DNA from: a virus
Lineage: Duplodnaviria > Heunggongvirae > Uroviricota > Caudoviricetes
DNA length: 26,146 nucleotides
Virus record (IMG/VR): IMGVR_UViG_2695420651_000027
Direction: 5' to 3' (one strand)
Each line of letters begins with the position of its first letter. Position 1 is the stretch's first letter. The notes under the pieces were generated by a model. The model saw nothing but the letters and a program-made list of their open reading frames with translations. It ran no database searches and was not told where the DNA came from. This document shows, one piece after another, positions 1 to 26,146 of this stretch. The position numbers and the translations under genes were made by a program.

Positions 1-204
1 CGGGAAGGAGTAAACCCAGGAATACTGGCTACATACGGTGACGGGGGAATAGTTAAAACGGACGAACCCGGTCTTAAGGTGCCTTCCTCACTACGAGCTA
101 TTAGCTCTCGTAGTGTTAAACGTTATGGTGAAATTAGTGAAAATGTAGGTACAGAAACTCGTCCTCGTAACATCGCTTTTAATTATATTGTGAGGGCCGC
201 ATGA
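1..204 (+). CDS. Tail fibre C-terminal variable exon, copy A (5' end truncated by window edge); identical to the C-terminus of H read on the other strand
   Basis: Plus-strand frame ends NYIVRAA-stop at 202-204, overlapping the tfa ATG at 201; bases 1-240 are the exact reverse complement of 1591-1830. Confidence 0.6.
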   Translation, partial: REGVNPGILATYGDGGIVKTDEPGLKVPSSLRAISSRSVKRYGEISENVGTETRPRNIAFNYIVRAA

Positions 205-806
205 TGAATAAAGCTGTATTAAATAGCGAACTCATTGCCATAAAAGCGGGAGATATTACCGTTTATAATTATGATGGTGAAACGCGGGAATATATTTCTA
301 CATCAACTGAATATCTCGCTGTCGGCGTCGGTATCCCGGCATGTTCCTGTCTGGATGCACCAGGTACACATAAAGCTGGTTATGCAATCTGTCGCTCTGT
401 AGATTTAAATTCATGGGAATATGTGCCAGACCATCGCGGTGAAGTTGTCTATAGTACCGAAACGGGAGATACCAAAGAAATCACAGTTCCGGGTGATTAC
501 CCTGAAAATACAACCACTATCGCCCCATTAACGCCATACGATAAATGGGATGGTGAGAAATGGGTGACGGATACCGAGGCACAGCATAGCGCCGCACTAG
601 ACGCGGCAGAAGTAAAGCGCCAGTCGCTGATTGATGCTGCAATGGCTTCCATCAGTCTGATTCAACTGAAATTACAGGCCGGGCGGAAGCTGACGCAGCC
701 AGAAAACACCCGACTTAACGCTGTGCTGGATTATATTGACGCGGTGACGGCAACAGATACCAGCACAGCGCCGGACGTCATCTGGCCTGAACTGCCGGAG
801 GCGTAG
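201..806 (+). CDS. tfa: Tail fibre assembly chaperone (Tfa, lambda Tfa / Mu U family), cassette A
   Basis: 201-aa ORF; conserved Tfa C-terminal motif VTATDTSTAPDVIWPELP; ATG overlaps preceding fibre stop (ATGA). Confidence 0.85.
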   Translation: MMNKAVLNSELIAIKAGDITVYNYDGETREYISTSTEYLAVGVGIPACSCLDAPGTHKAGYAICRSVDLNSWEYVPDHRGEVVYSTETGDTKEITVPGDYPENTTTIAPLTPYDKWDGEKWVTDTEAQHSAALDAAEVKRQSLIDAAMASISLIQLKLQAGRKLTQPENTRLNAVLDYIDAVTATDTSTAPDVIWPELPEA

Positions 807-1830: not shown

Positions 1831-3183
1831 TGCACTTCCTGCGGCGAGTCCGTCCCCTGTCCATAATTCCATATAGTGTGCATGGTCCAAAATTGTGTGT
1901 GGCTGCCAATTAAGCAAAGCGCGACCAGTATCAATCCCGCGACTGTCATCCCAGCCACGAATAAATTCACCGCGTAAATCAGGCAATTTATTGGTCGGGT
2001 AAGCCTTTGCCAGTTCCGGGTATTCTTCAGCAGAAAAAGCCGCACCGTTGCATTTCAGCCAGCCTGTTGGCGGAGTGGCGGAAGGCCACGGAACAGGCAC
2101 ACCAACGGGTAATGCCGAACCTTCTCCCAAACCAAGGTATGCGAGAAGACCAGCGACATCCTTTCCACTCAAATTAGTCAGCGTATTGTCCAGCGGTTGT
2201 TTACCTGCCAGCGCATTAAGCATTGTCGTGGCAAAGTTCGGATCATTCCCCAACGCCGACGCCAGTTCGTTCAGTGTATCCAGTGCCGCAGGTGCAGAAC
2301 CTACCATTGCTGCAATCGCCGATTTCACAAAAGCCGTGGTGGCAATCTGTGTATTGTTGACCGACTGTGCAGCAGTGGGGGCTGTTGGCGTTCCGGTGAG
2401 TGCCGGACTCGACAACGGCGCTTTCAGTGCCAGCGCATTGTTAATGGTGGTACTGAAATTCGGATCATTGTTAATGGCTGCGGCTATTTCTTTCAGCGTG
2501 TCCAGCGTGGCTGGCGCACCATTAATAAGAGCCGTCAGTGCCGCCTGAACAAACGCGGTGGTCGCAACCTGCGTGGTGTTATTCCCTGCCGCTGGAGTTG
2601 GCGCTTTTGGTGTCCCGGTAAACGTCGGACTTTCTTTGGGTGCATACTGTGAATGCGGGTCCGGTGCGGCAAGATGTTTTGCCATCTGATCATCCACGTA
2701 CACCTTCAGCTCCAGTACCTTGTCATCCACATACTTGCGGGTTGCCAGCACTACGGCAGGGTCGATTTTCAGGGTGATATTGTCCGTGCTGCTGGTAATC
2801 AGCACCATGCGCACGGTCTGGGTACGCCCGCTGCCTTCAGCCAGTTGCGGCTTATAGCTTTCCGGGCAGTTGCCCACGGCAATCAATGCCCCGGACTCAT
2901 CAAACAGGCCCACTTCACGTATCCACCAACCGCCCTCGTTTTCAGGGATCACCTGTTCAGCAATAATCTGGCTGCTGTTCTGCGGGTCGATATAGAGCAT
3001 ATTCAGCGCAGCCCGGCGTTTCTCATTTACCAATGCTGTCTGCTTGGCGTCCGGCGTTGGCAATGTTCCGCCGCCATCGCCCACCGCCATATGGGTAATT
3101 TTTAGCGGCACACCGAGCGCGGCGGCGCTGGCAAGTTTCGCCGCGCCAATATCCGTCAGCAGGGTATAAAATTTTGTGCTCAT
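1627..3183 (-). CDS. H: Tail fibre protein (P2 gpH-like): constant N-terminal region fused to variable C-terminus A
   Basis: 518-aa ORF; N-terminus MSTKFYTLLTDIG... is P2 H-like; internal approx 68-aa tandem repeat; crossover site embedded at 2122-2147. Confidence 0.85.
   Translation of the reverse strand: MSTKFYTLLTDIGAAKLASAAALGVPLKITHMAVGDGGGTLPTPDAKQTALVNEKRRAALNMLYIDPQNSSQIIAEQVIPENEGGWWIREVGLFDESGALIAVGNCPESYKPQLAEGSGRTQTVRMVLITSSTDNITLKIDPAVVLATRKYVDDKVLELKVYVDDQMAKHLAAPDPHSQYAPKESPTFTGTPKAPTPAAGNNTTQVATTAFVQAALTALINGAPATLDTLKEIAAAINNDPNFSTTINNALALKAPLSSPALTGTPTAPTAAQSVNNTQIATTAFVKSAIAAMVGSAPAALDTLNELASALGNDPNFATTMLNALAGKQPLDNTLTNLSGKDVAGLLAYLGLGEGSALPVGVPVPWPSATPPTGWLKCNGAAFSAEEYPELAKAYPTNKLPDLRGEFIRGWDDSRGIDTGRALLNWQPHTILDHAHYMELWTGDGLAAGSAREGVNPGILATYGDGGIVKTDEPGLKVPSSLRAISSRSVKRYGEISENVGTETRPRNIAFNYIVRAA
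2122..2147. other. 26-bp invertase crossover site inside H (TTCTCCCAAACC AA GGTATGCGAGAA)
   Basis: Imperfect 12-bp inverted half-sites around a central AA; matches the Hin/Gin family consensus as recalled (TTnTCnnAAACC AA GGTTTnnGAnAA). Confidence 0.7.
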
Positions 3184-3785
3184 GGATTCACTCTCATTGT
3201 GTCAATAACATGGACCGCCCCGCCTTCATGCGCGGTGCCGCCGGAAATAATTGTTTCGTTGATATACGGATAGATCGTGATTTCTTCGCCAAGATAGCTG
3301 GCGGCCCCCACCCAATGCGGACCGCTGGTCTGCAGATTGATGGACATGCCGATCATGTGACGGCTACATGGTTTGGCATCGCTTATCAGCCGCTCAAGTT
3401 CCAGATAGGTATCTTCAGTGATGCCCTGGTCCTGCACGCCGATATCCAGGCGAAACGTGCCCGGTGTTTCTCCGGTCTGCCACCACTCAATAATGCGGAT
3501 CAGGAATCCGAACGGTTCCACCACCCGCCGCACGGCACTGGTAGTTCCTTTATGCTGATGAATATAAAAAGCATCCTTCACTACCTGGCGTTTGACGCTT
3601 TCTGTCCAGCCCTCGTCCCAGCGATCCACAGAGAACGCCCAGGCGAGATAAGGCAGGAAGCTGACCGGACAGGTAGCCGGATTCCACAAGTCACGCAGCG
3701 GCACCTGCAGATCAGAAATCCCGCTACAGGTTTGCGCCAGTCGGCGCTCCAGTGAAGTTGAACCCGGTGGCAGCAGACTATTCAT
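3180..3785 (-). CDS. I: Baseplate/tail-fibre attachment protein (P2 gpI-like)
   Basis: 201-aa ORF in conserved position between J and H; overlaps H start. Confidence 0.8.
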   Translation of the reverse strand: MNSLLPPGSTSLERRLAQTCSGISDLQVPLRDLWNPATCPVSFLPYLAWAFSVDRWDEGWTESVKRQVVKDAFYIHQHKGTTSAVRRVVEPFGFLIRIIEWWQTGETPGTFRLDIGVQDQGITEDTYLELERLISDAKPCSRHMIGMSINLQTSGPHWVGAASYLGEEITIYPYINETIISGGTAHEGGAVHVIDTMRVNP

Positions 3786-4686: not shown

Positions 4687-5032
4687 TCTCTGCTCCTGTT
4701 GATACGGAAAGGGAAACAGGCACACCGTTATTACGCCGCCCGGTCAGCTCCACCACCATTGAACCGTCAAAATTGCTGTTAATGGTGATGGAATCCAGCG
4801 TCAGCCGTGGCTCCCAGCGACTCAGCGCCACATACACTGCCGACATGACCTGCAGGCGTAATGCCGGATTTTGTGGCTGGTCTATCAGTGCCGACAGCAG
4901 GGAACCATATTCCCGACGGGCAATGCGGCTACCCTGCGGCGTCAGCAAAATGTCCCGCACCGACTGGCGCAGATGATCAATATCAGTAATGGCTTTACCG
5001 CTGGTATTGTTCATCCCGCTATAAAGCGTCAT
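4673..5032 (-). CDS. W: Baseplate protein W (gp25/GPW family)
   Basis: 119-aa ORF; similar in pattern to P2 gpW; overlaps V stop. Confidence 0.8.
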   Translation of the reverse strand: MTLYSGMNNTSGKAITDIDHLRQSVRDILLTPQGSRIARREYGSLLSALIDQPQNPALRLQVMSAVYVALSRWEPRLTLDSITINSNFDGSMVVELTGRRNNGVPVSLSVSTGAENGSD

Positions 5033-5607
5033 ACCGGGCCTCCGGTTGTGTCGCCGCCTTTCAGGACGTCAGTATGCTGATGCGCATCAACCACGATCCC
5101 GTTAGAACTCATCGCTCCGCCGCCCTGGGTAACGCCACCATTGATCACCACTTCGCTGTTAATGCGCGTGCGGTCAGCCTCCAGTACAAACTCACTGGTT
5201 TTCATGGTGATGTTGTCAGCGGCCTCAATGACCATTGATTTGATGCCCCTGACATACCAGCGCCCGGTAGTGGGTTCGTATTCAAACCAGCCGCCGTCAG
5301 GATGTTCTGTCACGCAGGCGTCTGCCGACGTCGACGGTGGTGCGAACTGATTCGAATAGACAGCGGGCAGCGCAAAGGCAGTTTCCAGATTGCCGCCCAG
5401 ACTCAGCAGCACCACCTGCTCACCTTCCGATGGTCGCCACCATGTGCGGGCATTCCCGGCACGCAGCGTCAGCCAGCTGATCCAGTTGGTTTCAAGCTCG
5501 CCCGTTTTCACCCGGCAAAGCCAGTTTTCCCGGTCCACTTCGGTGACTACACCAGTGCGGATCAGGTTGGTGATAAGGCGCATGATTTCGGTTAGTTGTG
5601 CGTTCAT
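5029..5607 (-). CDS. V: Baseplate spike/assembly protein V
   Basis: Start at internal Met MNAQLTEIMRLITNLIRTG, aligning with recalled P2 gpV N-terminus; upstream 36 codons of the long ORF are likely untranslated. Confidence 0.75.
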   Translation of the reverse strand: MNAQLTEIMRLITNLIRTGVVTEVDRENWLCRVKTGELETNWISWLTLRAGNARTWWRPSEGEQVVLLSLGGNLETAFALPAVYSNQFAPPSTSADACVTEHPDGGWFEYEPTTGRWYVRGIKSMVIEAADNITMKTSEFVLEADRTRINSEVVINGGVTQGGGAMSSNGIVVDAHQHTDVLKGGDTTGGPV

Positions 5608-5653
5608 AGGGTTAGGTTGCACGGACCTTGAATCTATGGCATCAATACGTCCT

Positions 5654-5671
5654 TGTGTGGTAAATGACACA
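5654..5671. promoter_or_regulatory. Candidate Ogr-dependent late promoter element (TGT-N12-ACA dyad) in the V / cargo intergenic region
   Basis: TGT at 5654-5656, 12-nt spacer, ACA at 5669-5671; same dyad type recurs upstream of O and FI. Confidence 0.45.
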
Positions 5672-5702
5672 AATACAATTCCAATCAAAGAAAGGTAAAA
5701 GA

Positions 5703-6233
5703 ATGAGCCATCCAATTGATTATTACGCTATAGAAGAACACGCAAGAATAATTGAGCAATTATGCTGTTCATCTGAATTTTATTTACAGCGTATATATTC
5801 CACACAGAAAGTATATGATGGTTCTATAGTAACTGAATTTGAAATGGAGGAGTTATCGTACAACGGATGGTTGGAATATACCATTAGCAACAATCTTATT
5901 AGCCTTTGTACAAAACTACGAATTCTCCAAGACACTAGTGAACATGAGTGGAACCCAGATTACTCACCTGAGAAAGAAGCATTTGAAGAACATGAAAATA
6001 TACTTTTTGTTATAGATGGTCATGTTAAAGATTCTATACGCGAATGCTGCAATAAAATTATTCACGCATTAAGTTTTGAGTTAACAAAAAAGACCGGCAA
6101 AAATGGAATAAAATATTGGGACGGTTCTATTATTGCTTCTGGGGTTCAAAACAAAAAAAACTGGAAAATTAAAATAGACCTTTTCCCTTTTTGCCAAAGC
6201 ATAAAAAGTTATTTAAGTTTATTAAGAGCGTAA
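5703..6233 (+). CDS. Hypothetical protein; low-GC cargo (moron) gene at the P2 orf30 position between S and V, opposite strand
   Basis: 176-aa ORF from Met with AAAGG RBS 8 nt upstream; composition visibly AT-rich versus flanking structural genes; no family recognised. Confidence 0.6.
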   Translation: MSHPIDYYAIEEHARIIEQLCCSSEFYLQRIYSTQKVYDGSIVTEFEMEELSYNGWLEYTISNNLISLCTKLRILQDTSEHEWNPDYSPEKEAFEEHENILFVIDGHVKDSIRECCNKIIHALSFELTKKTGKNGIKYWDGSIIASGVQNKKNWKIKIDLFPFCQSIKSYLSLLRA

Positions 6234-6238
6234 ACATT

Positions 6239-6691
6239 CTAATTTTTCATCAATAAATACTTTAAAAGTAAATCTCTTACTTCATTTTCAGTATGTTCAT
6301 TTAAACCCAGCAATTTTCGGGATGGATACTTAATGACTCCCCCCTTTGGACTGACGCGATCGCGCAGACCGTAGTGATGAACACGGGCAATACGCTGTAC
6401 CTTACCTTCAAACTGTACGCTGGCAGAATCCGCGCTGGCGGCAGTTCTCAGGTATTTTGTGGTGCGCAGCTTTGCAAACATCTGACGTTTGATGCGCCCC
6501 TTCTTGCTGCGTGCTGTTACCCTGCGCGGCTCATAACTGCTGCCATCTGGATTGCGCTGCATCCTGATATTCTGCTGCTGTGTCCGGCGCAGTTCCTGCG
6601 CCAGCTGGCGCATCATTCGGCTTCTTGCGGCTGGTTCCAGATTCGCCAGCAAAGCACTCAGCCAGTCGTCCACCTTCTGCAGTTCAGCCAC
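6239..6691 (-). CDS. S: Tail completion protein S
   Basis: 150-aa ORF in conserved R-S order; P2 gpS-like. Confidence 0.75.
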   Translation of the reverse strand: MAELQKVDDWLSALLANLEPAARSRMMRQLAQELRRTQQQNIRMQRNPDGSSYEPRRVTARSKKGRIKRQMFAKLRTTKYLRTAASADSASVQFEGKVQRIARVHHYGLRDRVSPKGGVIKYPSRKLLGLNEHTENEVRDLLLKYLLMKN

Positions 6692-7136: not shown

Positions 7137-7368
7137 TAATCATGTCCACTTTGTCTGCACAGACCGCCCAGGCGGCCTCCGTTTCATCCAGCAATGCGTT
7201 CAGATCACCGTTAGTGCGCGGCGCTGCCTGCTCCAGCCGACACGGCGTCACTCGCGGACAACCACTGACGGTAAGCTGCACCTCCGGTGAGTGCCGGACG
7301 TTCCCGCAGCCGGATAATGTCAGCAGGCAAAGGAGTATCAGCCCAGCGGCGTAAATCCTCGTTCTCAC
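7078..7368 (-). CDS. lysC: Outer-membrane spanin lipoprotein (LysC/Rz1-like), overlapping the 3' end of lysB in another frame
   Basis: Signal peptide plus lipobox LTLSGC; starts inside lysB; Pro-rich mature region. Confidence 0.6.
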   Translation of the reverse strand: MRTRIYAAGLILLCLLTLSGCGNVRHSPEVQLTVSGCPRVTPCRLEQAAPRTNGDLNALLDETEAAWAVCADKVDMIIACQERNSEQTTIPAPRPQ

Positions 7369-7639
7369 GTTTCAGTTCCTCGATCCGGTGTTGTCGTTGT
7401 CTCAGCAGCGCGCTGGTCTGTTCTGCTTCGGCATAGAGCCGCGCCTGCTCCCGGTTATTGGTTTCAGCCAGAATGGACAGACTGATCAGCTGGCTATTTT
7501 TCTTCGTTAGTTCGTGCGCTTTACTTTTCAGCGCCGCGCGCTGCGTTTCGATGGTGTGGCTGGCGCTGTTAAGCCGCCACGACTGCCAGCCCAGCGCAAC
7601 GAGTGCCAGCGCCGCCACTACCGCCAGCGCACGCGTCAT
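7211..7639 (-). CDS. lysB: Inner-membrane spanin (LysB/Rz-like)
   Basis: N-terminal TM segment, coiled-coil-like charged region; ATGA overlap with endolysin stop. Confidence 0.7.
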   Translation of the reverse strand: MTRALAVVAALALVALGWQSWRLNSASHTIETQRAALKSKAHELTKKNSQLISLSILAETNNREQARLYAEAEQTSALLRQRQHRIEELKRENEDLRRWADTPLPADIIRLRERPALTGGAAYRQWLSASDAVSAGAGSAAH

Positions 7640-8151
7640 AATCCAGCTCCTTTAAGGCACCAGGCCATCTCCCGCGCACGGCGGTTATCCAGCCCCTGAT
7701 TAAACACACCTTTCACATAAACCCAGCGCGGCAACTGTCGGCACGCTTCTGCCCAGCGCCGCTGATTGAGCAATTTCACCAGCGTAGAACTGCAGGCATT
7801 GCCCGTTCCCACGTTGAAGGCAAACGACACCGTAGCGTCATATACCTTCTGCGGCGGCTGTTGCTTCACACACCTTTCCAGCGCCCGCTCCACACGCAGC
7901 ACGTTGGAAATAAGCCCTTCTGCTGCCTGTCGTTCCGTGATTGTTTTGCCGGGAATGACGCCCGACGTATTTCCAATGCCGTCGGTCCAGACACCCGCGC
8001 TGCACTGATACGGCTGCAGACGACAACCTTCGTAATCGGCAATCAGTTTCAGCCCCTCCACGGAGGTGTGAAGCTGCTGAAACCCCGGCAGCGTGGCAGC
8101 AATAGCCAGCACGGCCCCGACAAGGCAGCGTTTAACGATTGATGGATTCAT
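7636..8151 (-). CDS. Endolysin, lysozyme family with E-x8-C-x5-T catalytic triad and N-terminal SAR-like hydrophobic segment
   Basis: YEGCRLQPYQCSAGVWTDGIG motif; N-terminal CLVGAVLAIAATLP hydrophobic stretch resembles SAR endolysins (phage 21 R / P1 Lyz type). Confidence 0.75.
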   Translation of the reverse strand: MNPSIVKRCLVGAVLAIAATLPGFQQLHTSVEGLKLIADYEGCRLQPYQCSAGVWTDGIGNTSGVIPGKTITERQAAEGLISNVLRVERALERCVKQQPPQKVYDATVSFAFNVGTGNACSSTLVKLLNQRRWAEACRQLPRWVYVKGVFNQGLDNRRAREMAWCLKGAGL

Positions 8152-11818: not shown

Positions 11819-13585
11819 ATGAACACCACACTGACACCCGCAGATCTCGATCCCCGTCGGCAGGCCATGCTGCTGTACTTTCAGGGATACCGCGTAGCCC
11901 GCATTGCTGAAATGCTGGGCGAGAAAGTTGCAACCGTTCACAGCTGGAAAAAACGCGACAAGTGGGGTGACTATGGGCCGCTGGATCAGATGCAGCTCAC
12001 CACCGCCGCCCGCTACTGCCAGCTCATTATGAAGGAGCACAAAGAAGGGAAAGATTTCAAAGAAATTGACCTGCTGGCGCGCCAGTCGGAGCGCCACGCG
12101 CGGATCGGCAAGTTTAACAATGGCGGCAACGAAGCCGACTTAAACCCTAACGTCGCCAACCGCAACAAAGGGCCGCGCCGTCAGCCGGAAAAGAATGTTT
12201 TCACCGATGAACAGATTGAGAAGCTGGAAGAAATCTTCCATTCCTCCATGTTCAACTACCAGCGCCACTGGTGGGAAGCCGGAAAAACCAATCGCATCCG
12301 CAACCTGCTGAAGTCTCGCCAGATCGGCGCGACCTTTTACTTTGCCCGTGAAGCCCTGATTGACGCCCTGCTGACCGGACGTAACCAGATTTTCCTTTCC
12401 GCCAGTAAGGCACAGGCCCACGTCTTTAAGCAGTACATCATCGACTTCGCCAAAGAAGTCGAGGTGGAGCTGAAAGGCGATCCGATGGTGCTTCCTAACG
12501 GGGCCACGCTTTACTTCCTCGGCACCAATGCCCGCACGGCCCAGAGTTACCACGGCAACCTGTATCTGGATGAATATTTCTGGATACCGAAATTCCAGGA
12601 GCTGCGCAAAGTGGCTTCCGGTATGGCTATTCACAAAAAATGGCGACAAACCTATTTTTCCACGCCATCCAGCCTGACACACAGTGCTTATCCGTTCTGG
12701 TCCGGTGCGCTGTTCAACCGAGGGCGCAACAAAGCCGATAAGGTGGACATCGACCTGTCCCACAGCAATCTGGCCCCCGGCCTGCTGTGCGCAGACGGGC
12801 AGTACCGCCAGATAGTCACCGTGGAAGATGCGGTGCGCGGCGGCTGTAACCTGTTCGACCTTGACCAGTTGCGCATGGAGTACAGCCCGGACGAATACCA
12901 GAACCTGCTGATGTGCGAGTTCGTGGACGATCTCGCGTCCGTGTTCCCGCTCAGCGAGCTGCAGGCGTGCATGGTGGACAGTTGGGAAGTCTGGACCGAC
13001 TTTCATGCACTGGCCCTGCGCCCGTTTGGCTGGCGCGAAGTGTGGATCGGATATGACCCGGCGAAAGGTACGCAGAACGGCGACAGCGCCGGATGCGTGG
13101 TGGTGGCGCCGCCAGCCGTGCCGGGCGGTAAGTTCCGCATTCTTGAGCGTCACCAGTGGCGCGGAATGGACTTCCGCGCCCAGGCTGACGCCATCAAAAA
13201 ACTGACCGAACAGTACAACGTGACCTATATCGGTATCGACTCAACCGGCGTTGGTCACGGGGTTTACGAGAACGTGAAAGCGTTTTTTCCTGCCGTCCGG
13301 GAGTTTGTCTACAACCCCAACGTTAAAAACGCCCTGGTACTCAAGGCCTACGACATTATCAGCCACCGCCGTCTGGAGTTTGACGCCGGACACACCGACA
13401 TAGCGCAGTCCTTTATGGCAATCCGTCGCGCCACCACCGCCAGTGGCAACCGCCCGACCTATGAAGCCAGCCGCAGCGAAGAAGCCAGCCACGCCGATCT
13501 GGCCTGGGCAACGATGCACGCACTGTTTAACGAACCGCTGCAGGGCGAATCCGCCAATACCAGCAATATTGTGGAGATTTTTTGA
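11819..13585 (+). CDS. P: Terminase large (ATPase) subunit P
   Basis: 588-aa ORF; N-terminus LTPADLDPRRQAMLLYFQGYRV resembles P2 gpP. Confidence 0.85.
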   Translation: MNTTLTPADLDPRRQAMLLYFQGYRVARIAEMLGEKVATVHSWKKRDKWGDYGPLDQMQLTTAARYCQLIMKEHKEGKDFKEIDLLARQSERHARIGKFNNGGNEADLNPNVANRNKGPRRQPEKNVFTDEQIEKLEEIFHSSMFNYQRHWWEAGKTNRIRNLLKSRQIGATFYFAREALIDALLTGRNQIFLSASKAQAHVFKQYIIDFAKEVEVELKGDPMVLPNGATLYFLGTNARTAQSYHGNLYLDEYFWIPKFQELRKVASGMAIHKKWRQTYFSTPSSLTHSAYPFWSGALFNRGRNKADKVDIDLSHSNLAPGLLCADGQYRQIVTVEDAVRGGCNLFDLDQLRMEYSPDEYQNLLMCEFVDDLASVFPLSELQACMVDSWEVWTDFHALALRPFGWREVWIGYDPAKGTQNGDSAGCVVVAPPAVPGGKFRILERHQWRGMDFRAQADAIKKLTEQYNVTYIGIDSTGVGHGVYENVKAFFPAVREFVYNPNVKNALVLKAYDIISHRRLEFDAGHTDIAQSFMAIRRATTASGNRPTYEASRSEEASHADLAWATMHALFNEPLQGESANTSNIVEIF

Positions 13586-14619
13586 TGGGAAAGAGTAAGA
13601 AGAACCGCGCTGCGGCGACGAAACAGATCCAGCTTAAAAGTCAAACTACAGCCGAAGCATTCAGCTTCGGCGATCCCGTTCCTGTTCTGGACCGCCGAGA
13701 ACTGCTGGATTATGTGGAATGCGTACAGATGGACCGCTGGTATGAGCCGCCCGTCAGCTTTGACGGACTGGCGCGCACCTTCCGCGCTGCCGTGCATCAT
13801 AGTTCCCCGATTGCAGTAAAGTGCAACATTCTGACCAGCACCTACATCCCTCACCCGCTGCTCAGCCAGCAGGCTTTTTCGCGTTTTGTGCAGGACTATC
13901 TGGTTTTTGGTAACGCCTACCTGGAGAAACGCACGAACCGCTTCGGTGAAGTTATCGCCCTTGAGCCTGCACTGGCAAAATACACCCGACGCGGGTTAGA
14001 CCTGGATACCTACTGGTTTGTGCAATACGGTATGACAACCCAGCCGTATCAGTTCACGAAAGGCAGCATTTTTCATCTGATGGAACCGGATATTAATCAG
14101 GAGATCTACGGCCTGCCCGGTTATCTTTCTGCCATTCCGTCAGCCCTGCTCAACGAGTCCGCCACGCTGTTCCGTCGCAAGTATTACATTAACGGCAGTC
14201 ATGCGGGCTTTATCATGTACATGACCGATGCCGCGCAAAACCAGGAGGATGTGAACAACCTCCGCAATGCGATGAAAAGCGCCAAAGGTCCAGGCAACTT
14301 CCGCAACCTGTTTATGTACTCGCCTAACGGCAAAAAAGACGGGCTTCAGATCATCCCATTGTCAGAAGTCGCGGCGAAGGATGAGTTTTTGAATATCAAA
14401 AATGTCAGCCGCGACGACATGATGGCTGCGCACCGCGTGCCGCCGCAAATGATGGGGATTATGCCTAATAATGTTGGAGGGTTTGGGGATGTGGAGAAGG
14501 CCAGTCGCGTATTTGTACGTAATGAATTAACGCCCTTGCAAAAAAGGCTACAAGAGCTGAACGACTGGCTGGGCGAAGAAGTGATTAAATTTACGCCCTA
14601 TATTCTTTCAGAAGAATAA
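13582..14619 (+). CDS. Q: Portal (capsid vertex) protein Q
   Basis: 345-aa ORF, overlaps P stop; P2 gpQ-like. Confidence 0.85.
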   Translation: MMGKSKKNRAAATKQIQLKSQTTAEAFSFGDPVPVLDRRELLDYVECVQMDRWYEPPVSFDGLARTFRAAVHHSSPIAVKCNILTSTYIPHPLLSQQAFSRFVQDYLVFGNAYLEKRTNRFGEVIALEPALAKYTRRGLDLDTYWFVQYGMTTQPYQFTKGSIFHLMEPDINQEIYGLPGYLSAIPSALLNESATLFRRKYYINGSHAGFIMYMTDAAQNQEDVNNLRNAMKSAKGPGNFRNLFMYSPNGKKDGLQIIPLSEVAAKDEFLNIKNVSRDDMMAAHRVPPQMMGIMPNNVGGFGDVEKASRVFVRNELTPLQKRLQELNDWLGEEVIKFTPYILSEE

Positions 14620-14627
14620 TTCCGAAC

Positions 14628-15326
14628 TTATTTGTTTCTTCTTTGTTCACGCCTTGTCTTGGCTTCGATAAGGCGTTGAGGTTCAGTGTAAAGCCGTTCT
14701 AAAAAAAGATAGGTAAAATCTTCAAGATCCTCAGCAGCAGCTTTATCCAAAATACCTTCATGCGCTCCATCATTTCCGTCATCTTTAACGCATTCAGCTA
14801 GTTCCCTTAAAGCTTCAGGCAGTAGATGATTATCAAATAACCACTCCATTCTTAACCCTAGGCTTCTCCTTATTTTTTGCGCAGGCCCTTGCTCCCCATC
14901 AGGAAGAAGTCCTTTTGTGGCATAATCAAGGCAAAGCCTAAACATGGTTGCTGCTGCATTATAACAACCTATAGCCAAACATTTCGCCCCTTCCTCATAT
15001 GCACTATTGATATGCTCAGGTAAGAACTCTGGTGGCTCCTCTACTGCTAAGTCTGCCGGTGATATAGGCCTAACAACCTCTGCAACTTCCTTTAAGCCGA
15101 ATATTCCACTTTCCCAATTATAGCCATCTAAAGTTTTATTTTTCGTTAAAGGTCTGCAAAGAAACATTGTCGTTTTATGACACTCTCGGCAAACACAATA
15201 GACCTCGTACTCGTATGTTTTACCCCCGCCCAATGCATTGTAAACCCTAGTGCAATTCAGCCCATTAACATCAAACGCTATTTTTTGTGATCCACATCGT
15301 GGACAGTCATCCACTAACATAACCAT
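14628..15326 (-). CDS. Hypothetical cargo protein: N-terminal Cys-rich zinc ribbon plus C-terminal DUF4145-like domain; candidate defence gene at the position P2 uses for old/tin
   Basis: 232-aa ORF, GGAGGAG RBS; CPRCG...CVCRECH cysteine cluster; C-terminal motif ...AIGCYNAAATMFRLCLDYA...ELAECVKDDGNDGAHEG recalled as DUF4145-like; AT-rich. Confidence 0.55.
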   Translation of the reverse strand: MVMLVDDCPRCGSQKIAFDVNGLNCTRVYNALGGGKTYEYEVYCVCRECHKTTMFLCRPLTKNKTLDGYNWESGIFGLKEVAEVVRPISPADLAVEEPPEFLPEHINSAYEEGAKCLAIGCYNAAATMFRLCLDYATKGLLPDGEQGPAQKIRRSLGLRMEWLFDNHLLPEALRELAECVKDDGNDGAHEGILDKAAAEDLEDFTYLFLERLYTEPQRLIEAKTRREQRRNK

Positions 15327-15406
15327 GTCAATTACTCCTCCCTATGAAAAAAATGAGTTGAAAAATTGAATATTCACGACTTAAAAAGCTAGGTAATGAC
15401 TCCAAC

Positions 15407-15910
15407 TTATTGATAGTGTTTTATGTTCAGATAATGCCCGATGACTTTGTCATGCAGCTCCACCGATTTTGAGAACGACAGCGACTTCCGTCCCAGCCGT
15501 GCCAGGTGCTGCCTCAGATTCAGGTTATGCCGCTCAATTCGCTGCGTATATCGCTTGCTGATTACGTGCAGCTTTCCCTTCAGGCGGGATTCATACAGCG
15601 GCCAGCCATCCGTCATCCATATCACCACGTCAAAGGGTGACAGCAGGCTCATAAGACGCCCCAGCGTCGCCATAGTGCGTTCACCGAATACGTGCGCAAC
15701 AACCGTCTTCCGGAGCCTGTCATACGCGTAAAACAGCCAGCGCTGGCGCGATTTAGCCCCGACGTATCCCCACTGTTCGTCCATTTCCGCGCAGACGATG
15801 ACGTCACTGCCCGGCTGTATGCGCGAGGTTACCGACTGCGGCCTGAGTTTTTTAAATGGCGGAAAATCGTGTTGAGGCCAACGCCCATAATGCGGGCGGT
15901 TGCCCGGCAT
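15407..15910 (-). CDS. insB: IS1 InsB (expressed as InsAB' transposase by -1 frameshift)
   Basis: 167-aa ORF matching IS1 InsB. Confidence 0.9.
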
Positions 15911-16104
15911 CCAACGCCATTCATGGCCATATCAATGATTTTCTGGTGCGTACCGGGTTGAGAAGCGGTGTAAGTGAACTGCAGTTGCCATGTTTTACGG
16001 CAGTGAGAGCAGAGATAGCGCTGATGTCCGGCGGTGCTTTTGCCGTTACGCACCACCCCGTCAGTAGCTGAACAGGAGGGACAGCTGATAGAAACAGAAG
16101 CCAC
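15829..16104 (-). CDS. insA: IS1 InsA
   Basis: 91-aa [26 protein letters not shown]... identical in pattern to IS1 InsA; A6C frameshift motif at about 15847-15853. Confidence 0.9.
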
Positions 16105-16159
16105 TGGAGCACCTCAAAAACACCATCATACACTAAATCAGTAAGTTGGCAGCATCACC

Positions 16160-16170
16160 NNNNNNNNNNN
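16160..16170. other. Assembly gap (11 N) immediately at the IS1 end
   Basis: N run. Confidence 0.95.
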
Positions 16171-16553
16171 CTTAAGACCGGGTTCGTCCGTTTTAACTAT
16201 TCCCCCGTCACCGTATGTAGCCAGTATTCCTGGGTTTACTCCTTCCCGTGCACTTCCTGCGGCGAGTCCGTCCCCTGTCCATAATTCCATATAGTGTGCA
16301 TGGTCCAAAATTGTGTGTGGCTGCCAATTAAGCAAAGCGCGACCAGTATCAATCCCGCGACTGTCATCCCAGCCACGAATAAATTCACCGCGTAAATCAG
16401 GCAATTTATTGGTCGGGTAAGCCTTTGCCAGTTCCGGGTATTCTTCAGCAGAAAAAGCCGCACCGTTGCATTTCAGCCAGCCTGTTGGCGGAGTGGCGGA
16501 AGGCCACGGAACAGGCACACCAACGGGTAATGCCGAACCTTCTCCCAAACCAA
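16171..16553. repeat. Direct repeat of 1753-2135: tail fibre variable exon A fragment joined to the invertase-proximal crossover site (silent cassette, or alternate-orientation junction)
   Basis: Identity checked over sampled segments at both ends of the two copies with a constant offset of 14418; identity ends exactly after TTCTCCCAAACCAA. Confidence 0.85.
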
Positions 16554-16565
16554 CGTTTATGAAAA
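16540..16565. other. 26-bp invertase crossover site adjacent to the invertase gene (TTCTCCCAAACC AA CGTTTATGAAAA)
   Basis: Quasi-palindromic half-sites around central AA; lies 55 bp upstream of the invertase start, as in gin/cin/hin systems. Confidence 0.7.
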
Positions 16566-16620
16566 TGCAGAGATAACGGCTAACTGGCATCATCTCCGGT
16601 TTTTATTCAGGGGGATGATC

Positions 16621-17187
16621 ATGCTTATTGGCTATGTACGCGTGTCAACAAATGACCAGAACACCGATTTGCAACGTAATGCACTGAACTGCGCGGGATG
16701 TGAGCGGATTTTTGAGGATAAAATCAGTGGCACTAAGTCCGACAGACCGGGGCTGAAAAAGCTGCTCAGGACACTATCGGCAGGAGACACGCTGGTTGTC
16801 TGGAAGCTGGACAGGTTGGGGCGCAGTATGCGGCATCTTGTTACGCTGATAGAGGAGTTGCGCCAGCGTGGTGTGAATTTCCGAAGCCTGACTGACAGTA
16901 TTGATACCAGTACCCCAATGGGCCGTTTCTTTTTTCATGTCATGGGTGCCCTGGCTGAAATGGAACGCGAACTGATAGTTGAACGTACCAGGGCAGGGCT
17001 GGCTGCAGCTCGTGCCAAAGGCAGAGTAGGTGGACGCCGTCCTAAGTTGACCACCGAACAGTGGGCACAGATTGGGCGTTTACTCGAGGCCGGAGAATCA
17101 AGACAGCGTATTGCACTGATTTTTGATGTGGGTGTTTCCACAATTTATAGAAAATTTCCGGCAAATAAGAGTAATGAATCCCCCTGA
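16621..17187 (+). CDS. Site-specific DNA invertase, serine recombinase of the Hin/Gin/Pin/Cin family
   Basis: MLIGYVRVSTNDQNTDLQ (catalytic Ser in the VRVST motif), resolvase fold, C-terminal HTH (GVSTIYRKF); start at second ATG with GGGGG RBS. Confidence 0.9.
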   Translation: MLIGYVRVSTNDQNTDLQRNALNCAGCERIFEDKISGTKSDRPGLKKLLRTLSAGDTLVVWKLDRLGRSMRHLVTLIEELRQRGVNFRSLTDSIDTSTPMGRFFFHVMGALAEMERELIVERTRAGLAAARAKGRVGGRRPKLTTEQWAQIGRLLEAGESRQRIALIFDVGVSTIYRKFPANKSNESP

Positions 17188-23070: not shown

Positions 23071-24167
23071 ATTTCAGCTCTGAACTGCTTAACAAAGGCA
23101 ACAAAACTCCCGCATTCAGCATCAGTATTGAGGGCAGGGATATCACCACTGTGCTGGATAACCGCCTGATGAGTTTGACGCTGACGGACAATCGGGGCTT
23201 TGAAGCAGACCAGCTTGATCTGGAGCTGGACGACGCCGACGGAAAAATCGTGCTGCCGCGCCGTGGTGCGGTTATTACGCTGGCGCTGGGCTGGAAGGGG
23301 CAGCCGCTTTTCCCGAAAGGGGCATTCACGGTGGACGAGATTGAACACACTGGCGCACCGGACCGCCTGACTATCCGGGCGCGAAGTGCTGATTTTCGTG
23401 AAACGCTGAATACCCGCCGTGAAAAGTCGTGGCACAAGACCACCGTTGGGGAAGTGGTGAAGGAAATAGCTGCACGGCACAAACTGAAGATGGCATTGGG
23501 TAAAGACCTGTCAGATAAACCCGTGGAACATATAGACCAGACCAATGAGAGTGACGGCAGTTTTCTGATGCGACTGGCGCGCCAGTACGGTGCTATTGCA
23601 TCGGTGAAAAATGGCAATCTGTTATTCATCCGGCAGGGACAGGGCAAAAGCGCCAGCGGTAAACCACTGCCGGTGATCACTATCACGCGTAAGGACGGCG
23701 ACAGTCACCGCTTTACCCTGGCAGATCGCGGAGCCTATACGGGCGTCATTGCCAGCTGGTTGCATACCCGCGAACCCGCGAAGAAAGAAAGCACCACGGT
23801 GAAGCGTAAGCGCAGAACTAAGAAGCAGAAGAAAGAGCCGGAAGCGAAGCAGGGCGATTATCTGGTGGGGACGGATGAAAACGTGCTGGTACTTAATCGC
23901 ACTTATGCCAACCGGAGCAACGCCGAACGAGCGGCGAAAATGCAGTGGGAACGCCTGCAACGCGGTGTTGCGTCATTCTCGCTACAACTGGCGGAAGGTC
24001 GGGCAGATCTCTACACGGAAATGCCTGTGAAGGTCAGTGGCTTTAAACAGCCAATAGATGATGCGGAATGGACCATTACGACTCTGACACATACCGTCAG
24101 CCCGGATAACGGTTTTACGACCAGTATTGAACTTGAAGTGAAAATTGGTGATCTTGAAATGGAATAA
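23067..24167 (+). CDS. D: Tail protein D
   Basis: 366-aa ORF; P2 gpD-like. Confidence 0.8.
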   Translation: MNFSSELLNKGNKTPAFSISIEGRDITTVLDNRLMSLTLTDNRGFEADQLDLELDDADGKIVLPRRGAVITLALGWKGQPLFPKGAFTVDEIEHTGAPDRLTIRARSADFRETLNTRREKSWHKTTVGEVVKEIAARHKLKMALGKDLSDKPVEHIDQTNESDGSFLMRLARQYGAIASVKNGNLLFIRQGQGKSASGKPLPVITITRKDGDSHRFTLADRGAYTGVIASWLHTREPAKKESTTVKRKRRTKKQKKEPEAKQGDYLVGTDENVLVLNRTYANRSNAERAAKMQWERLQRGVASFSLQLAEGRADLYTEMPVKVSGFKQPIDDAEWTITTLTHTVSPDNGFTTSIELEVKIGDLEME

Positions 24168-24194
24168 ATGGTTCTCAATATTGATATTTTGTGT

Positions 24195-24208
24195 ATCATT
24201 GCAATGAT
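24195..24208. promoter_or_regulatory. Perfect 14-bp palindrome ATCATTGCAATGAT between D and ogr (candidate operator)
   Basis: Read directly; sits about 30 nt upstream of the ogr start codon. Confidence 0.3.
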
Positions 24209-24235
24209 TCTGATAGCAAAGGTAGGGATCTGGAT

Positions 24236-24454
24236 ATGATGAATTGTCCAAAGTGTGGTCATGCGGCGCACACAAGGAGCAGTTTTCAAGTAACAGAAAG
24301 CACCAAAGAGCGTTACTGCCAGTGCCAAAATATTAACTGCGGGAGCACTTTTGTTACCCATGAAACAGTGGTCCGGTTTATTGTGACACCTGCAGTGATT
24401 GCCACAGCCCCTCCACATCCATTGCCAGGTGGTCAGGGCCATATGAATTTTTAA
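24236..24454 (+). CDS. ogr: Late transcription activator Ogr (zinc finger, Ogr/Delta family)
   Basis: CPKCGHAAH...CQCQNINCGSTF...PHPLPGGQ matches recalled P2 Ogr C-x2-C-x22-C-x4-C pattern; start at internal Met of the longer ORF. Confidence 0.85.
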   Translation: MMNCPKCGHAAHTRSSFQVTESTKERYCQCQNINCGSTFVTHETVVRFIVTPAVIATAPPHPLPGGQGHMNF

Positions 24455-24460
24455 GAAAGA

Positions 24461-24486
24461 GAACCTGCTACGGCAGGTTTTTATTC
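24461..24486. terminator. Hairpin plus T-run between convergent ogr and the WYL-BRCT gene (likely bidirectional terminator)
   Basis: AACCTGC-TACG-GCAGGTT followed by TTTTTATT. Confidence 0.5.
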
Positions 24487-24963
24487 ATCTGGGATCTCAC
24501 CCGTTTCAAGAAAATGTATAAAGCCAGGCTCATCTATGATGATAGTGCCTTTCATCCTGGCTGCCGATACTTTTGATGGGCCTGCATTGTAACCGCAACA
24601 GAGCATCTGAAGGTTTTGGGTTACAGATGTTCTTACCGTTAATCCTTGTTCATTCGCCTTATCAACCAACCTTTCTTTATCTGCTTTCTTAAATCCGGTG
24701 AAACACACATCGAATGTATTTTTTTTCGGACCTGACTGCTTAGTGAGATGTGAGTAGTTTTCGGGGAGGAATGACGCGCATTCCTGAATGGCTTGTTCTT
24801 GTGAATCGTATTGTTTAAGAATGCGGTCTTTTCGGAAGGTTTTTATTCGATCGGTGTTCTTACAAATGCCCTGTATGTGATTTTCGCTATAACTGATGCT
24901 CTGTATTGAGTGAACACCGATACGACCATTTGCATTGATGTAAACAAAGTGAAGTTCTTCCAT
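24481..24963 (-). CDS. Hypothetical cargo protein: N-terminal WYL-like domain plus C-terminal BRCT domain, between ogr and the ssrA attachment region
   Basis: 160-aa ORF with AAGAGG RBS; KTFRKDRIL resembles the WYL signature; C-terminal VCFTGF...GLTV..SVTQ...CCGYNAGPSKVSAAR..GTIIIDE resembles ligase-type BRCT. Confidence 0.55.
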   Translation of the reverse strand: MEELHFVYINANGRIGVHSIQSISYSENHIQGICKNTDRIKTFRKDRILKQYDSQEQAIQECASFLPENYSHLTKQSGPKKNTFDVCFTGFKKADKERLVDKANEQGLTVRTSVTQNLQMLCCGYNAGPSKVSAARMKGTIIIDEPGFIHFLETGEIPDE

Positions 24964-25086: not shown

Positions 25087-25449
25087 TGGTGGAGCTGGCG
25101 GGAGTTGAACCCGCGTCCGAAATTCCTACATCCTCGGTACTACATGCTTAGTCAGTCTTTACATTCGCTTGCCAGCTGCGGACGGACACGCCACTAACAA
25201 ACTAGCCTGATTAAGTTTTAACGCTTCAACCCCAGGCAGGGCTTCCACGCGATCTCTTTTGGGTTTGACCTCTCTTGATCCCCGTCCTAAGAGCGGAGGC
25301 TAGGGAGAGAGGGCTCTAAGCAGGTTATTAAGCTGCTAAAGCGTAGTTTTCGTCGTTTGCGACTATTTTTTGCGGCTTTTTACGAGGCCAACCGCCCCTC
25401 GGCATGCACCTTGGGTTTCGCAAATCCCGTCGAATCCAGAATCAGCCCC
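25087..25449 (-). ncRNA. ssrA: tmRNA (SsrA), 363 nt
   Basis: Minus strand begins GGGGCTGATTCTGGATTCGACGGG and ends ...GGTTCAACTCCCGCCAGCTCCACCA; matches recalled E. coli ssrA throughout. Confidence 0.9.
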
Positions 25450-25663: not shown

Positions 25664-26146
25664 TTAACGGTGGGCGTTTTTCATGATACGCGCTTTATCC
25701 ACCTGCCATTCGCGTTCTTTGATATCTGAACGTTTATCGTGCTGTTTCTTACCTTTGGCGACGCCGATTTTCACTTTGCACCAGGCATTTTTCCAGTACA
25801 GGGAGAGCGCCACTACGGTATAGCCTTCTCGATTGACGCGACCGTACAACGAATCAAGTTCGCGCTGGTTGAGAAGTAACTTGCGGGTACGGGTAGGATC
25901 GCACACCACATGCGTAGAAGCCACAGCCATTGGCGTGATGTTTGCGCCAAACAGGAACGCTTCTCCGTCGCGCAGAAGGACATAGCTGTCGCTAATATTG
26001 GCTTTTCCTGCGCGCAGGGATTTAACTTCCCAGCCTTGCAGGGCAAGTCCCGCTTCGAACTCTTCTTCAATAAAGTATTCGTGACGGGCGCGCTTGTTAA
26101 GCGCGATGGTCGCTGAACCAGGTTTATGTGCTTTTTTCTTCGTCAT
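25664..26146 (-). CDS. smpB: SsrA-binding protein SmpB
   Basis: 160-aa [31 protein letters not shown]...; canonical smpB-ssrA neighbourhood; start codon is the last three bases of the window. Confidence 0.9.

Follow-up and report, generated by a model that had tools for sequence, protein, structure and literature searches.

RAZR and other zinc-finger and DUF4145 defence proteins

PD-T7-4 emerged from a functional selection in Escherichia coli, where it was listed as 'Zn finger-HEPN' (PMC9519451), and has since been renamed RAZR, for ring-activated zinc-finger RNase (Nature 2026; PMC13017515). It joins a Cys4 zinc ribbon at the N terminus to a DUF4145 domain, a divergent HEPN RNase, at the C terminus (PMC13017515). 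This fusion had already been catalogued in the 2013 HEPN survey (PMC3710099). RAZR alone is harmless, being non-toxic even when over-produced. For activation, 24 RAZR copies come together around a phage protein ring of ~170 Å, either the dodecameric portals of T7, T3 and SECphi18 or the 24-mer ring of the Erf-like Gp77 of SECphi27. Activated RAZR cleaves RNA non-specifically and the infection is aborted. Catalysis needs R146 and H154, and an R146A substitution abolishes defence. Specificity is set by the zinc-finger domain, where the protein varies most, and the linker is required for oligomerisation and defence (PMC13017515). Here, we describe a 232-amino-acid (aa) protein encoded in a 26,146-nt stretch of tailed-phage DNA (IMG/VR record IMGVR_UViG_2695420651_000027; the window is this whole stretch). 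Judged by its sequence, it is a distant relative of RAZR with the same build and a different sensor domain, and its gene is probably an anti-phage gene of a known kind. We put the probability that it is a RAZR-type (PD-T7-4) RNase, carried by a prophage and acting alone in abortive infection, as argued from this analogy, at roughly 0.6.

Another single DUF4145/HEPN protein with anti-phage activity is BxaP, which is associated with bacteriophage exclusion (BREX) systems (PMC10799925). In that protein, DUF4145 occupies the N terminus, where it is fused to a HEAT-like domain, and a zinc ribbon is missing; in the 232-aa protein, the domain is C-terminal. DS-38 (HEP2, WP_001313577.1), a validated E. 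coli defence protein from DefensePredictor, combines HEPN with a zinc finger unlike that of PD-T7-4. By gene length and accession, the 232-aa protein is not DS-38, which is encoded by a 1101-nt gene (~366 aa) and carries another accession.

The gene and its product

The gene is complete and lies at 14628..15326 on the minus strand of the window. Its ATG start was taken from the list of open reading frames (ORFs), and a Shine-Dalgarno sequence, GGAGGAG (15335..15341, minus), was read directly from the sequence 8 nt 5′ of the ATG. The gene converges on a P2-type portal gene, Q (13582..14619, plus; Pfam Phage_portal), which anchors the locus, with 8 nt separating the two stop codons. The guanine-cytosine (GC) content is 41.8% in the gene, 51.4% in the portal gene and 57.2% in the terminase gene, and at third codon positions (GC3) it is 31.8% versus 61.3% in the portal gene. 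This base composition marks the gene as foreign cargo. All of this agrees with a sequence-only reading of the window, made from the letters and a list of ORFs, which had singled out a low-GC gene for 232 aa on the opposite strand beside the portal gene. Compared with alleles of 78–81% nucleotide identity, the ratio of non-synonymous to synonymous substitution rates (dN/dS) is 0.04–0.07, with dS saturated at this distance. The gene is under strong purifying selection, and is a working gene. Homologues of the protein number more than 600 at 90% clustering, and clusters at 50% identity number 927. CARTA_1 of Escherichia phage Cartapus matches the protein at 100% identity in tblastn. The copy in E. 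coli LF82 is WP_000245245.1, to which RefSeq gives the name 'DUF4145 domain-containing protein', and a search of NCBIfam with the 232-aa protein returned no match.

The protein starts with a predicted Cys4 zinc ribbon (residues 1–58; 15153..15326, minus, as are all segments given here), the presumed trigger sensor, in which C8, C11, C46 and C49 form the motifs CPRC (8–11) and CREC (46–49). It is followed by a hypervariable segment (residues 59–87; 15066..15152) that is mostly missing from RAZR, and by a conserved linker (residues 88–103, ISPAD..EPPEFLPE; 15018..15065) matched to residues 66–79 of the RAZR linker. Next comes the DUF4145 domain, a divergent HEPN and the presumed RNase effector (residues 104–215; 14682..15017). 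It contains K181-x7-H189 (KDDGNDGAH; 14760..14786), the counterpart of R146-x7-H154 in RAZR, which overlaps the motif GNDGAHE (residues 184–190). The protein ends in a conserved basic tail with R225, R226 and R229 (residues 216–232 and stop codon; 14628..14681).

Conservation was counted in an alignment of 231 family homologues. The four Cys residues, G184, N185 and H189 are conserved in 221–230 of these (H189 in 228), and R130 is also nearly invariant; C44 of 'CVCREC' varies. Pfam places DUF4145 (PF13643) on residues 114–203 with 30.3 bits, above the cut-off of 23.1 (E 4.5e-7). The N-terminal Cys cluster, the similarity to DUF4145 noted by the sequence-only reading and the conserved GNDGAHE that it had pointed out are thereby confirmed. 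Besides, the family profile weakly matches the zinc ribbons of RPA12/RPB9 (E 0.1). Compared with the window protein, the homologues have a median identity of 62% in the HEPN domain, 50% in the linker, 39% in the zinc-finger domain and 12% in residues 59–87. This profile, high in HEPN and lower in the zinc finger, mirrors that of RAZR.

Homology to RAZR

A profile search of Pfam and PADLOC had been proposed along with the initial observations. Besides the DUF4145 match in Pfam, it gave a sole match in PADLOC: PD-T7-4 (PDLC04109; E 1.2e-6, 26.1 bits, profile positions 39–165). Relatives of the 232-aa protein match PD-T7-4 collinearly, from the first CxxC through the end of HEPN. BLASTP aligns the window protein with a RAZR homologue at 26% identity over 128 residues (E 2e-4). 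In sequence searches of the PDB, a phmmer query with the protein alone produced chance matches only and a narrow family profile produced none; the top match of a broadened family profile was RAZR chain 9Y9C_OA (E 1e-5). This alignment pairs ciReDGNDgaH with CRIVGNQAVH and MFRLCLD with LLRLCLQ. It yielded residues 15–191 of RAZR (reference protein: E. coli UMB1727, RRL46918.1; PDB 9Y9C, 9Y6U), in a numbering that agrees with the published R146, H154 and AGN 68–70. With this fragment as the query, 1423 RAZR-family proteins were retrieved, 25 of which were aligned.

Profile-profile comparison by hhalign gave an E of 1e-4 with small profiles. With profiles of 231 and 117 sequences, the global alignment reached a probability of 97.7% (E 1.1e-11) and the local one, of residues 100–222 with RAZR 76–191, 96.9% (E 1.8e-10). 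The global alignment runs collinearly through the entire protein, matching CPRCG with CPHCG (RAZR C16/C19), CRECH with CSHCG (RAZR C49/C52), ISPAD..EPPEFLPE with IIPAAGNVELPNPDMPD, TMFRLCLD with ALLRLCLQ, and KDDGNDGAH with RIVGNQAVH. In the linker, ISPADLAVEEPPEFLPE pairs with RAZR IIPAAGNVELPNPDMPD in both BLASTP and hhalign, and in several alignments H189 is the counterpart of the catalytic H154. The charged dimer-dimer helix of RAZR (D179, D180, R184) aligns with E210, R211 and E215 in the conserved LERLYTEP, which would be compatible with a preserved dimer-dimer interface.

RAZR and the 232-aa protein are thus both encoded by a single gene for ~220–230 aa and built from a Cys4 ribbon, a Pro-rich linker and DUF4145/HEPN. 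Common to both are the basic-x3-G-N-x3-H motif and the helix (M/L)(F/L)RLCL(D/Q); both are carried on mobile elements and vary most in the zinc-finger region. In contrast, their identity is just 19–27%, and the zinc-finger region of the 232-aa protein is ~25 residues longer, with the hypervariable insert 59–87 gapped against RAZR in hhalign. Its conserved basic RRxxR tail has no RAZR counterpart by hhalign. The RAZR gene overlaps an integrase gene (PMC9519451), whereas the gene for the 232-aa protein sits between cos and Q of P2-like phages. We therefore reject membership of the RAZR family itself, given the bit score (26 versus 339 for a RAZR homologue), the zinc finger, the Lys in place of Arg and the tail. 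The residues with which RAZR contacts its triggers (R29, Y31, R35, T41, E43) have no alignable counterparts, and because the sensor domains cannot be aligned, the trigger is not transferable from RAZR. What is new here is a divergent, very widespread family missed by current annotation and models; the kind of protein itself has recently been solved. The gene had been put forward as an uncharacterised defence candidate: the homology to RAZR supports the defence part, while the kind, the divergent family aside, is already known.

Predicted mode of action

The defence reading is supported by homology to a validated defence protein, seen in the PD-T7-4 match in PADLOC, the match to PDB 9Y9C and the 97.7% hhalign alignment. 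The RAZR-like conservation profile, the place in the gpA–gpQ hotspot, the lack of a conserved neighbour in 80 species and the dN/dS of 0.04–0.07 also speak for it. By analogy with RAZR, the protein would be produced in the lysogen and remain inert there. When a different phage infects, an abundant oligomeric phage protein would be bound by the variable zinc-finger region, and the resulting assembly would place the HEPN dimers in an active geometry. The K181...H189 site could then cleave RNA non-specifically, so that translation would halt and the infection would abort, protecting the lysogen population and the resident prophage. RNase activity, the abortive outcome and ring-templated activation are all predicted from RAZR, and the nature of the trigger is the most tentative part of this scheme.

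Several observations weigh against this interpretation. The PD-T7-4 model gives the protein 26 bits, compared with 339 bits over positions 1–209 for the RAZR homologue P0267, and the zinc-finger domains on their own align by hhalign over 13 columns at the second knuckle only. K181 stands where RAZR has R146, an Arg that is invariant in the 25 aligned RAZR sequences. A single-sequence AlphaFold2 model of the protein reached a predicted local distance difference test (pLDDT) score of only 39.5 and is unusable. In the genome of the window, an IS1 element ~65 nt upstream makes expression uncertain. Outside phages, the immediate neighbours of the gene in 80 species are mostly non-defence genes. PHROGs labels the family (PHROG 1305) 'DNA binding protein', and in the literature we found no experiment on WP_000245245.1 or CARTA_1. 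Two Cartapus genes are reported to be expressed in LF82 lysogens, and these could not be mapped to the gene for the 232-aa protein.

The Lys at position 181 also bears on a different explanation, namely that the HEPN domain is non-catalytic and binds RNA or a phage protein, acting as a regulator, a decoy or a sequestering exclusion factor. The alignment of K181 with R146 and the loss of RAZR defence in R146A (PMC13017515) would fit this, as would the Lys present in 55/55 portal-linked copies; the full Rx4-6H motif is missing from ~20% of DUF4145 members (PMC3710099). However, H189, N185 and G184 are near-invariant and only basic or polar residues occur at position 181 (K in 154 of the 231 homologues, R in 65, Q in 6), as expected of a maintained active site. 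Moreover, close relatives swap K and R at this position, which argues for a basic catalytic residue that is kept rather than decaying. Of the alternatives to an abortive-infection RNase, this one survives best, and we still consider it unlikely.

The cos-proximal hotspot and the portal gene

Cartapus is a P2-like (Peduoviridae) prophage of E. coli LF82, with cos at 1–59, the gene for the 232-aa protein at 162–860 and the portal gene Q at 869–1903. Beyond cos, the LF82 chromosome carries two hypothetical genes, DinI and the replication gene gpA. The order Q, 232-aa gene, cos, two hypothetical genes and, further on, gpA places the gene in the gpA–gpQ interval, the cos-proximal hotspot of P2-like phages that houses many validated defence systems (PMC9122126, PMC9519451). 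The window shows only the Q side of this hotspot, owing to the IS1 and a scaffold gap. Among 5426 complete E. coli genomes, 42 have the allele of the window next to Q. P2 itself lacks the gene, and its cos–Q gap of 167 bp contains only the terminator tQ. Relative to cos, old and tin of P2 are on the gpA side and the gene discussed here is on the Q side, so that the P2 old/tin position initially assigned to it holds for the hotspot and not for the slot. Old and tin are non-essential lysogenic-conversion or exclusion genes and, like this gene, belong to the cos-proximal gpA–gpQ interval; Old (an OLD-family ATPase/nuclease) and Tin are both unrelated to the 232-aa protein. In LF82, the old/tin slot is occupied by the two hypothetical genes, of 203 and 86 aa (7217–7828 and 7877–8137 of the LF82 stretch). 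No PADLOC model matched either of them, and they are candidates for further hotspot cargo.

A P2-type portal gene stands beside the gene in 50 of 70 viral loci and in 5 of 80 species genomes. In the 50 viral loci, the portal gene is convergent and downstream, 14–48 bp away in 47 of them. On viral contigs, the linkage holds as identity of the protein falls from 100% to 49% and that of the portal to 62%. The remaining 20 viral loci lie in temperate phages of other kinds, among them Mu-like phages. Some alleles that are 57% identical adjoin portals 87–88% identical to that of the window. Gene and portal thus diverge out of step, indicating that alleles are exchanged at a fixed slot. A functional basis for the linkage could take the form of a sensor tuned to portal rings that would fire on foreign portals, stay blind to the self-portal and be inherited with it as a compatible pair, or of a phage-controlled RNase that assembles on the phage's own portal late in infection; we regard such a basis as doubtful.

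The same linkage could reflect a role in the phage life cycle, with the protein serving beside cos and portal as a nucleic-acid-binding or RNase accessory for packaging or late expression. This would be in line with the PHROG 1305 label and with Gordonia phage Meyran, whose gene 1, adjoining cos and terminase, encodes a distant relative. However, P2 lacks the gene, few E. coli genomes carry the allele of the window (the 42/5426 above), and the low GC content marks the gene as cargo. No P2 portal occurs near 74 of the 80 species loci, many of which are without any phage genes, and the combination of 57% alleles with 87–88% portals speaks for cassette exchange, not co-adaptation. A life-cycle role is therefore quite improbable.

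Distribution and neighbouring genes

The family is found in Proteobacteria, Nitrospirota, Omnitrophota, Verrucomicrobiota, Planctomycetota, Acidobacteriota and other phyla at 42–84% identity, a distribution usual for mobile genes. At 80 species loci, ORF calling with tblastn and clustering revealed no recurrent neighbour gene; the largest neighbour clusters were serine recombinases (6 loci), the P2 module (5 loci) and transposases. A few neighbours match TIR, IrrE/CapP, RmrA, Mad2, DpdF or a methylase, among mostly unrelated genes, and the immediate neighbours at these loci give no clear defence-island signal. With the exception of the P2 portal, no gene recurs beside the 232-aa gene in the 80 species or the 70 viral loci. 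The single-gene architecture proposed from the sequence alone is borne out by this, and a two-gene or toxin–antitoxin system was rejected on the same grounds.

The least probable alternative is that the protein is the toxin of an addiction or toxin–antitoxin module, or a counter-defence RNase serving the prophage and not host defence: HEPN domains are common toxins, e.g. in HEPN-MNT (PMC3710099), a lambdoid relative adjoins higBA and the gene moves on mobile elements, but no small gene or MNT partner is conserved at the loci surveyed, RAZR alone is non-toxic when over-produced (PMC13017515), and no anti-defence family was matched in the libraries scanned (Pfam, PADLOC, NCBIfam, PHROGs).

Distant zinc-ribbon–DUF4145 relatives, at 22–33% identity, occur in phages in three settings. 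In lambdoid/Stx-type phages, the relative lies beside higBA (3040–3714 of the stretch examined). In Gordonia phage Meyran, it is gene 1, next to cos and terminase (94–783 of the stretch examined). In Burkholderia phages, it lies on the strand opposite to the annotated genes and is itself unannotated (3001–3603 of the stretch examined).

Implications

The protein represents a second, far more divergent zinc-ribbon–DUF4145 family, carried by P2-like prophages beside their own portal gene. If it acts in defence as a RAZR-type abortive-infection RNase, the RAZR principle would take in a further sensor and, probably, further triggers. The repertoire of the P2 hotspot would likewise gain an unrecognised system, one that is scored at about 1/13 of a true member (26 versus 339 bits), and the question of how a portal-sensing kind of protein coexists with a resident portal would become testable. 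If the portal linkage is functional as well, it would offer a natural system for self/non-self discrimination between homologous portal rings, and an enzyme of the RAZR type in which Lys does the work of the Arg that is canonical in HEPN. If there is no defence, the gene would be just another hotspot moron.

IS1, the scaffold gap and expression

The IS1 element upstream of the gene is complete (768 bp; 15392..16159, minus), as judged from its terminal repeats and the InsA/InsB ORFs. It lies ~65 nt upstream of the ATG, is oriented like the gene for the 232-aa protein, and abuts with its far end a scaffold gap of 11 N (16160..16170). The best E. coli matches listed (n=20) all end at the IS1 junction, at base 993 of the 1101-base query. 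Since homology stops at the junction and the IS1 abuts the gap, the element is a private insertion at an assembly break and is uninformative on the locus. The sequence-only reading had counted it towards the case for a defence gene; the IS1 is there, and is no evidence of a hotspot. Through the insertion, the gene may have lost its connection to cos and to any more distant upstream promoter. Promoter scans were uninformative: TTGAAT-N16-TTAAAT in LF82 is a weak and unconvincing candidate, which the IS1 of the window would sever.

Order and orientation to the right of the gap are unreliable. On that side, the tail module (invertase, sheath FI to gpD) occupies the plus strand; to the left, the H-to-O module occupies the minus strand. 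Mis-scaffolding, an inversion mediated by the IS1 or the presence of a second prophage could account for this strand switch, which breaks P2 synteny. A Hin/Gin-type serine invertase (Resolvase and HTH_7) is flanked by tail-fibre-assembly fragments (16615–17187, plus; 16171–16593, minus; 201–806, plus), with a Caudo_TAP match at 201–806 (plus). This arrangement suggests an invertible host-range segment, which is also a likely cause of assembly breaks.

Other features of the window

An ORF of 189 aa (5664–6233, plus) lies in an island of 38–39% GC, antisense to the flanking genes for baseplate V (5029–5715) and tail completion S (6239–6691). It gave no match in Pfam or PADLOC, and is possibly a second moron, within the tail gene cluster. 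Between gpD and the transfer-messenger RNA (tmRNA) gene, a stretch of 41–44% GC (24011–24963, minus) contains ORFs of 143 and 160 aa. The latter has a weak BRCT match below the cut-off and matches the PADLOC candidate PDC-S48 (E 1.7e-7) with its C-terminal 70 residues only. The right end of the window carries the tmRNA gene (tag ANDENYALAA) and smpB (25087–25449, minus, and 25664–26146, minus). The P2-like element therefore adjoins ssrA, a classical integration site.

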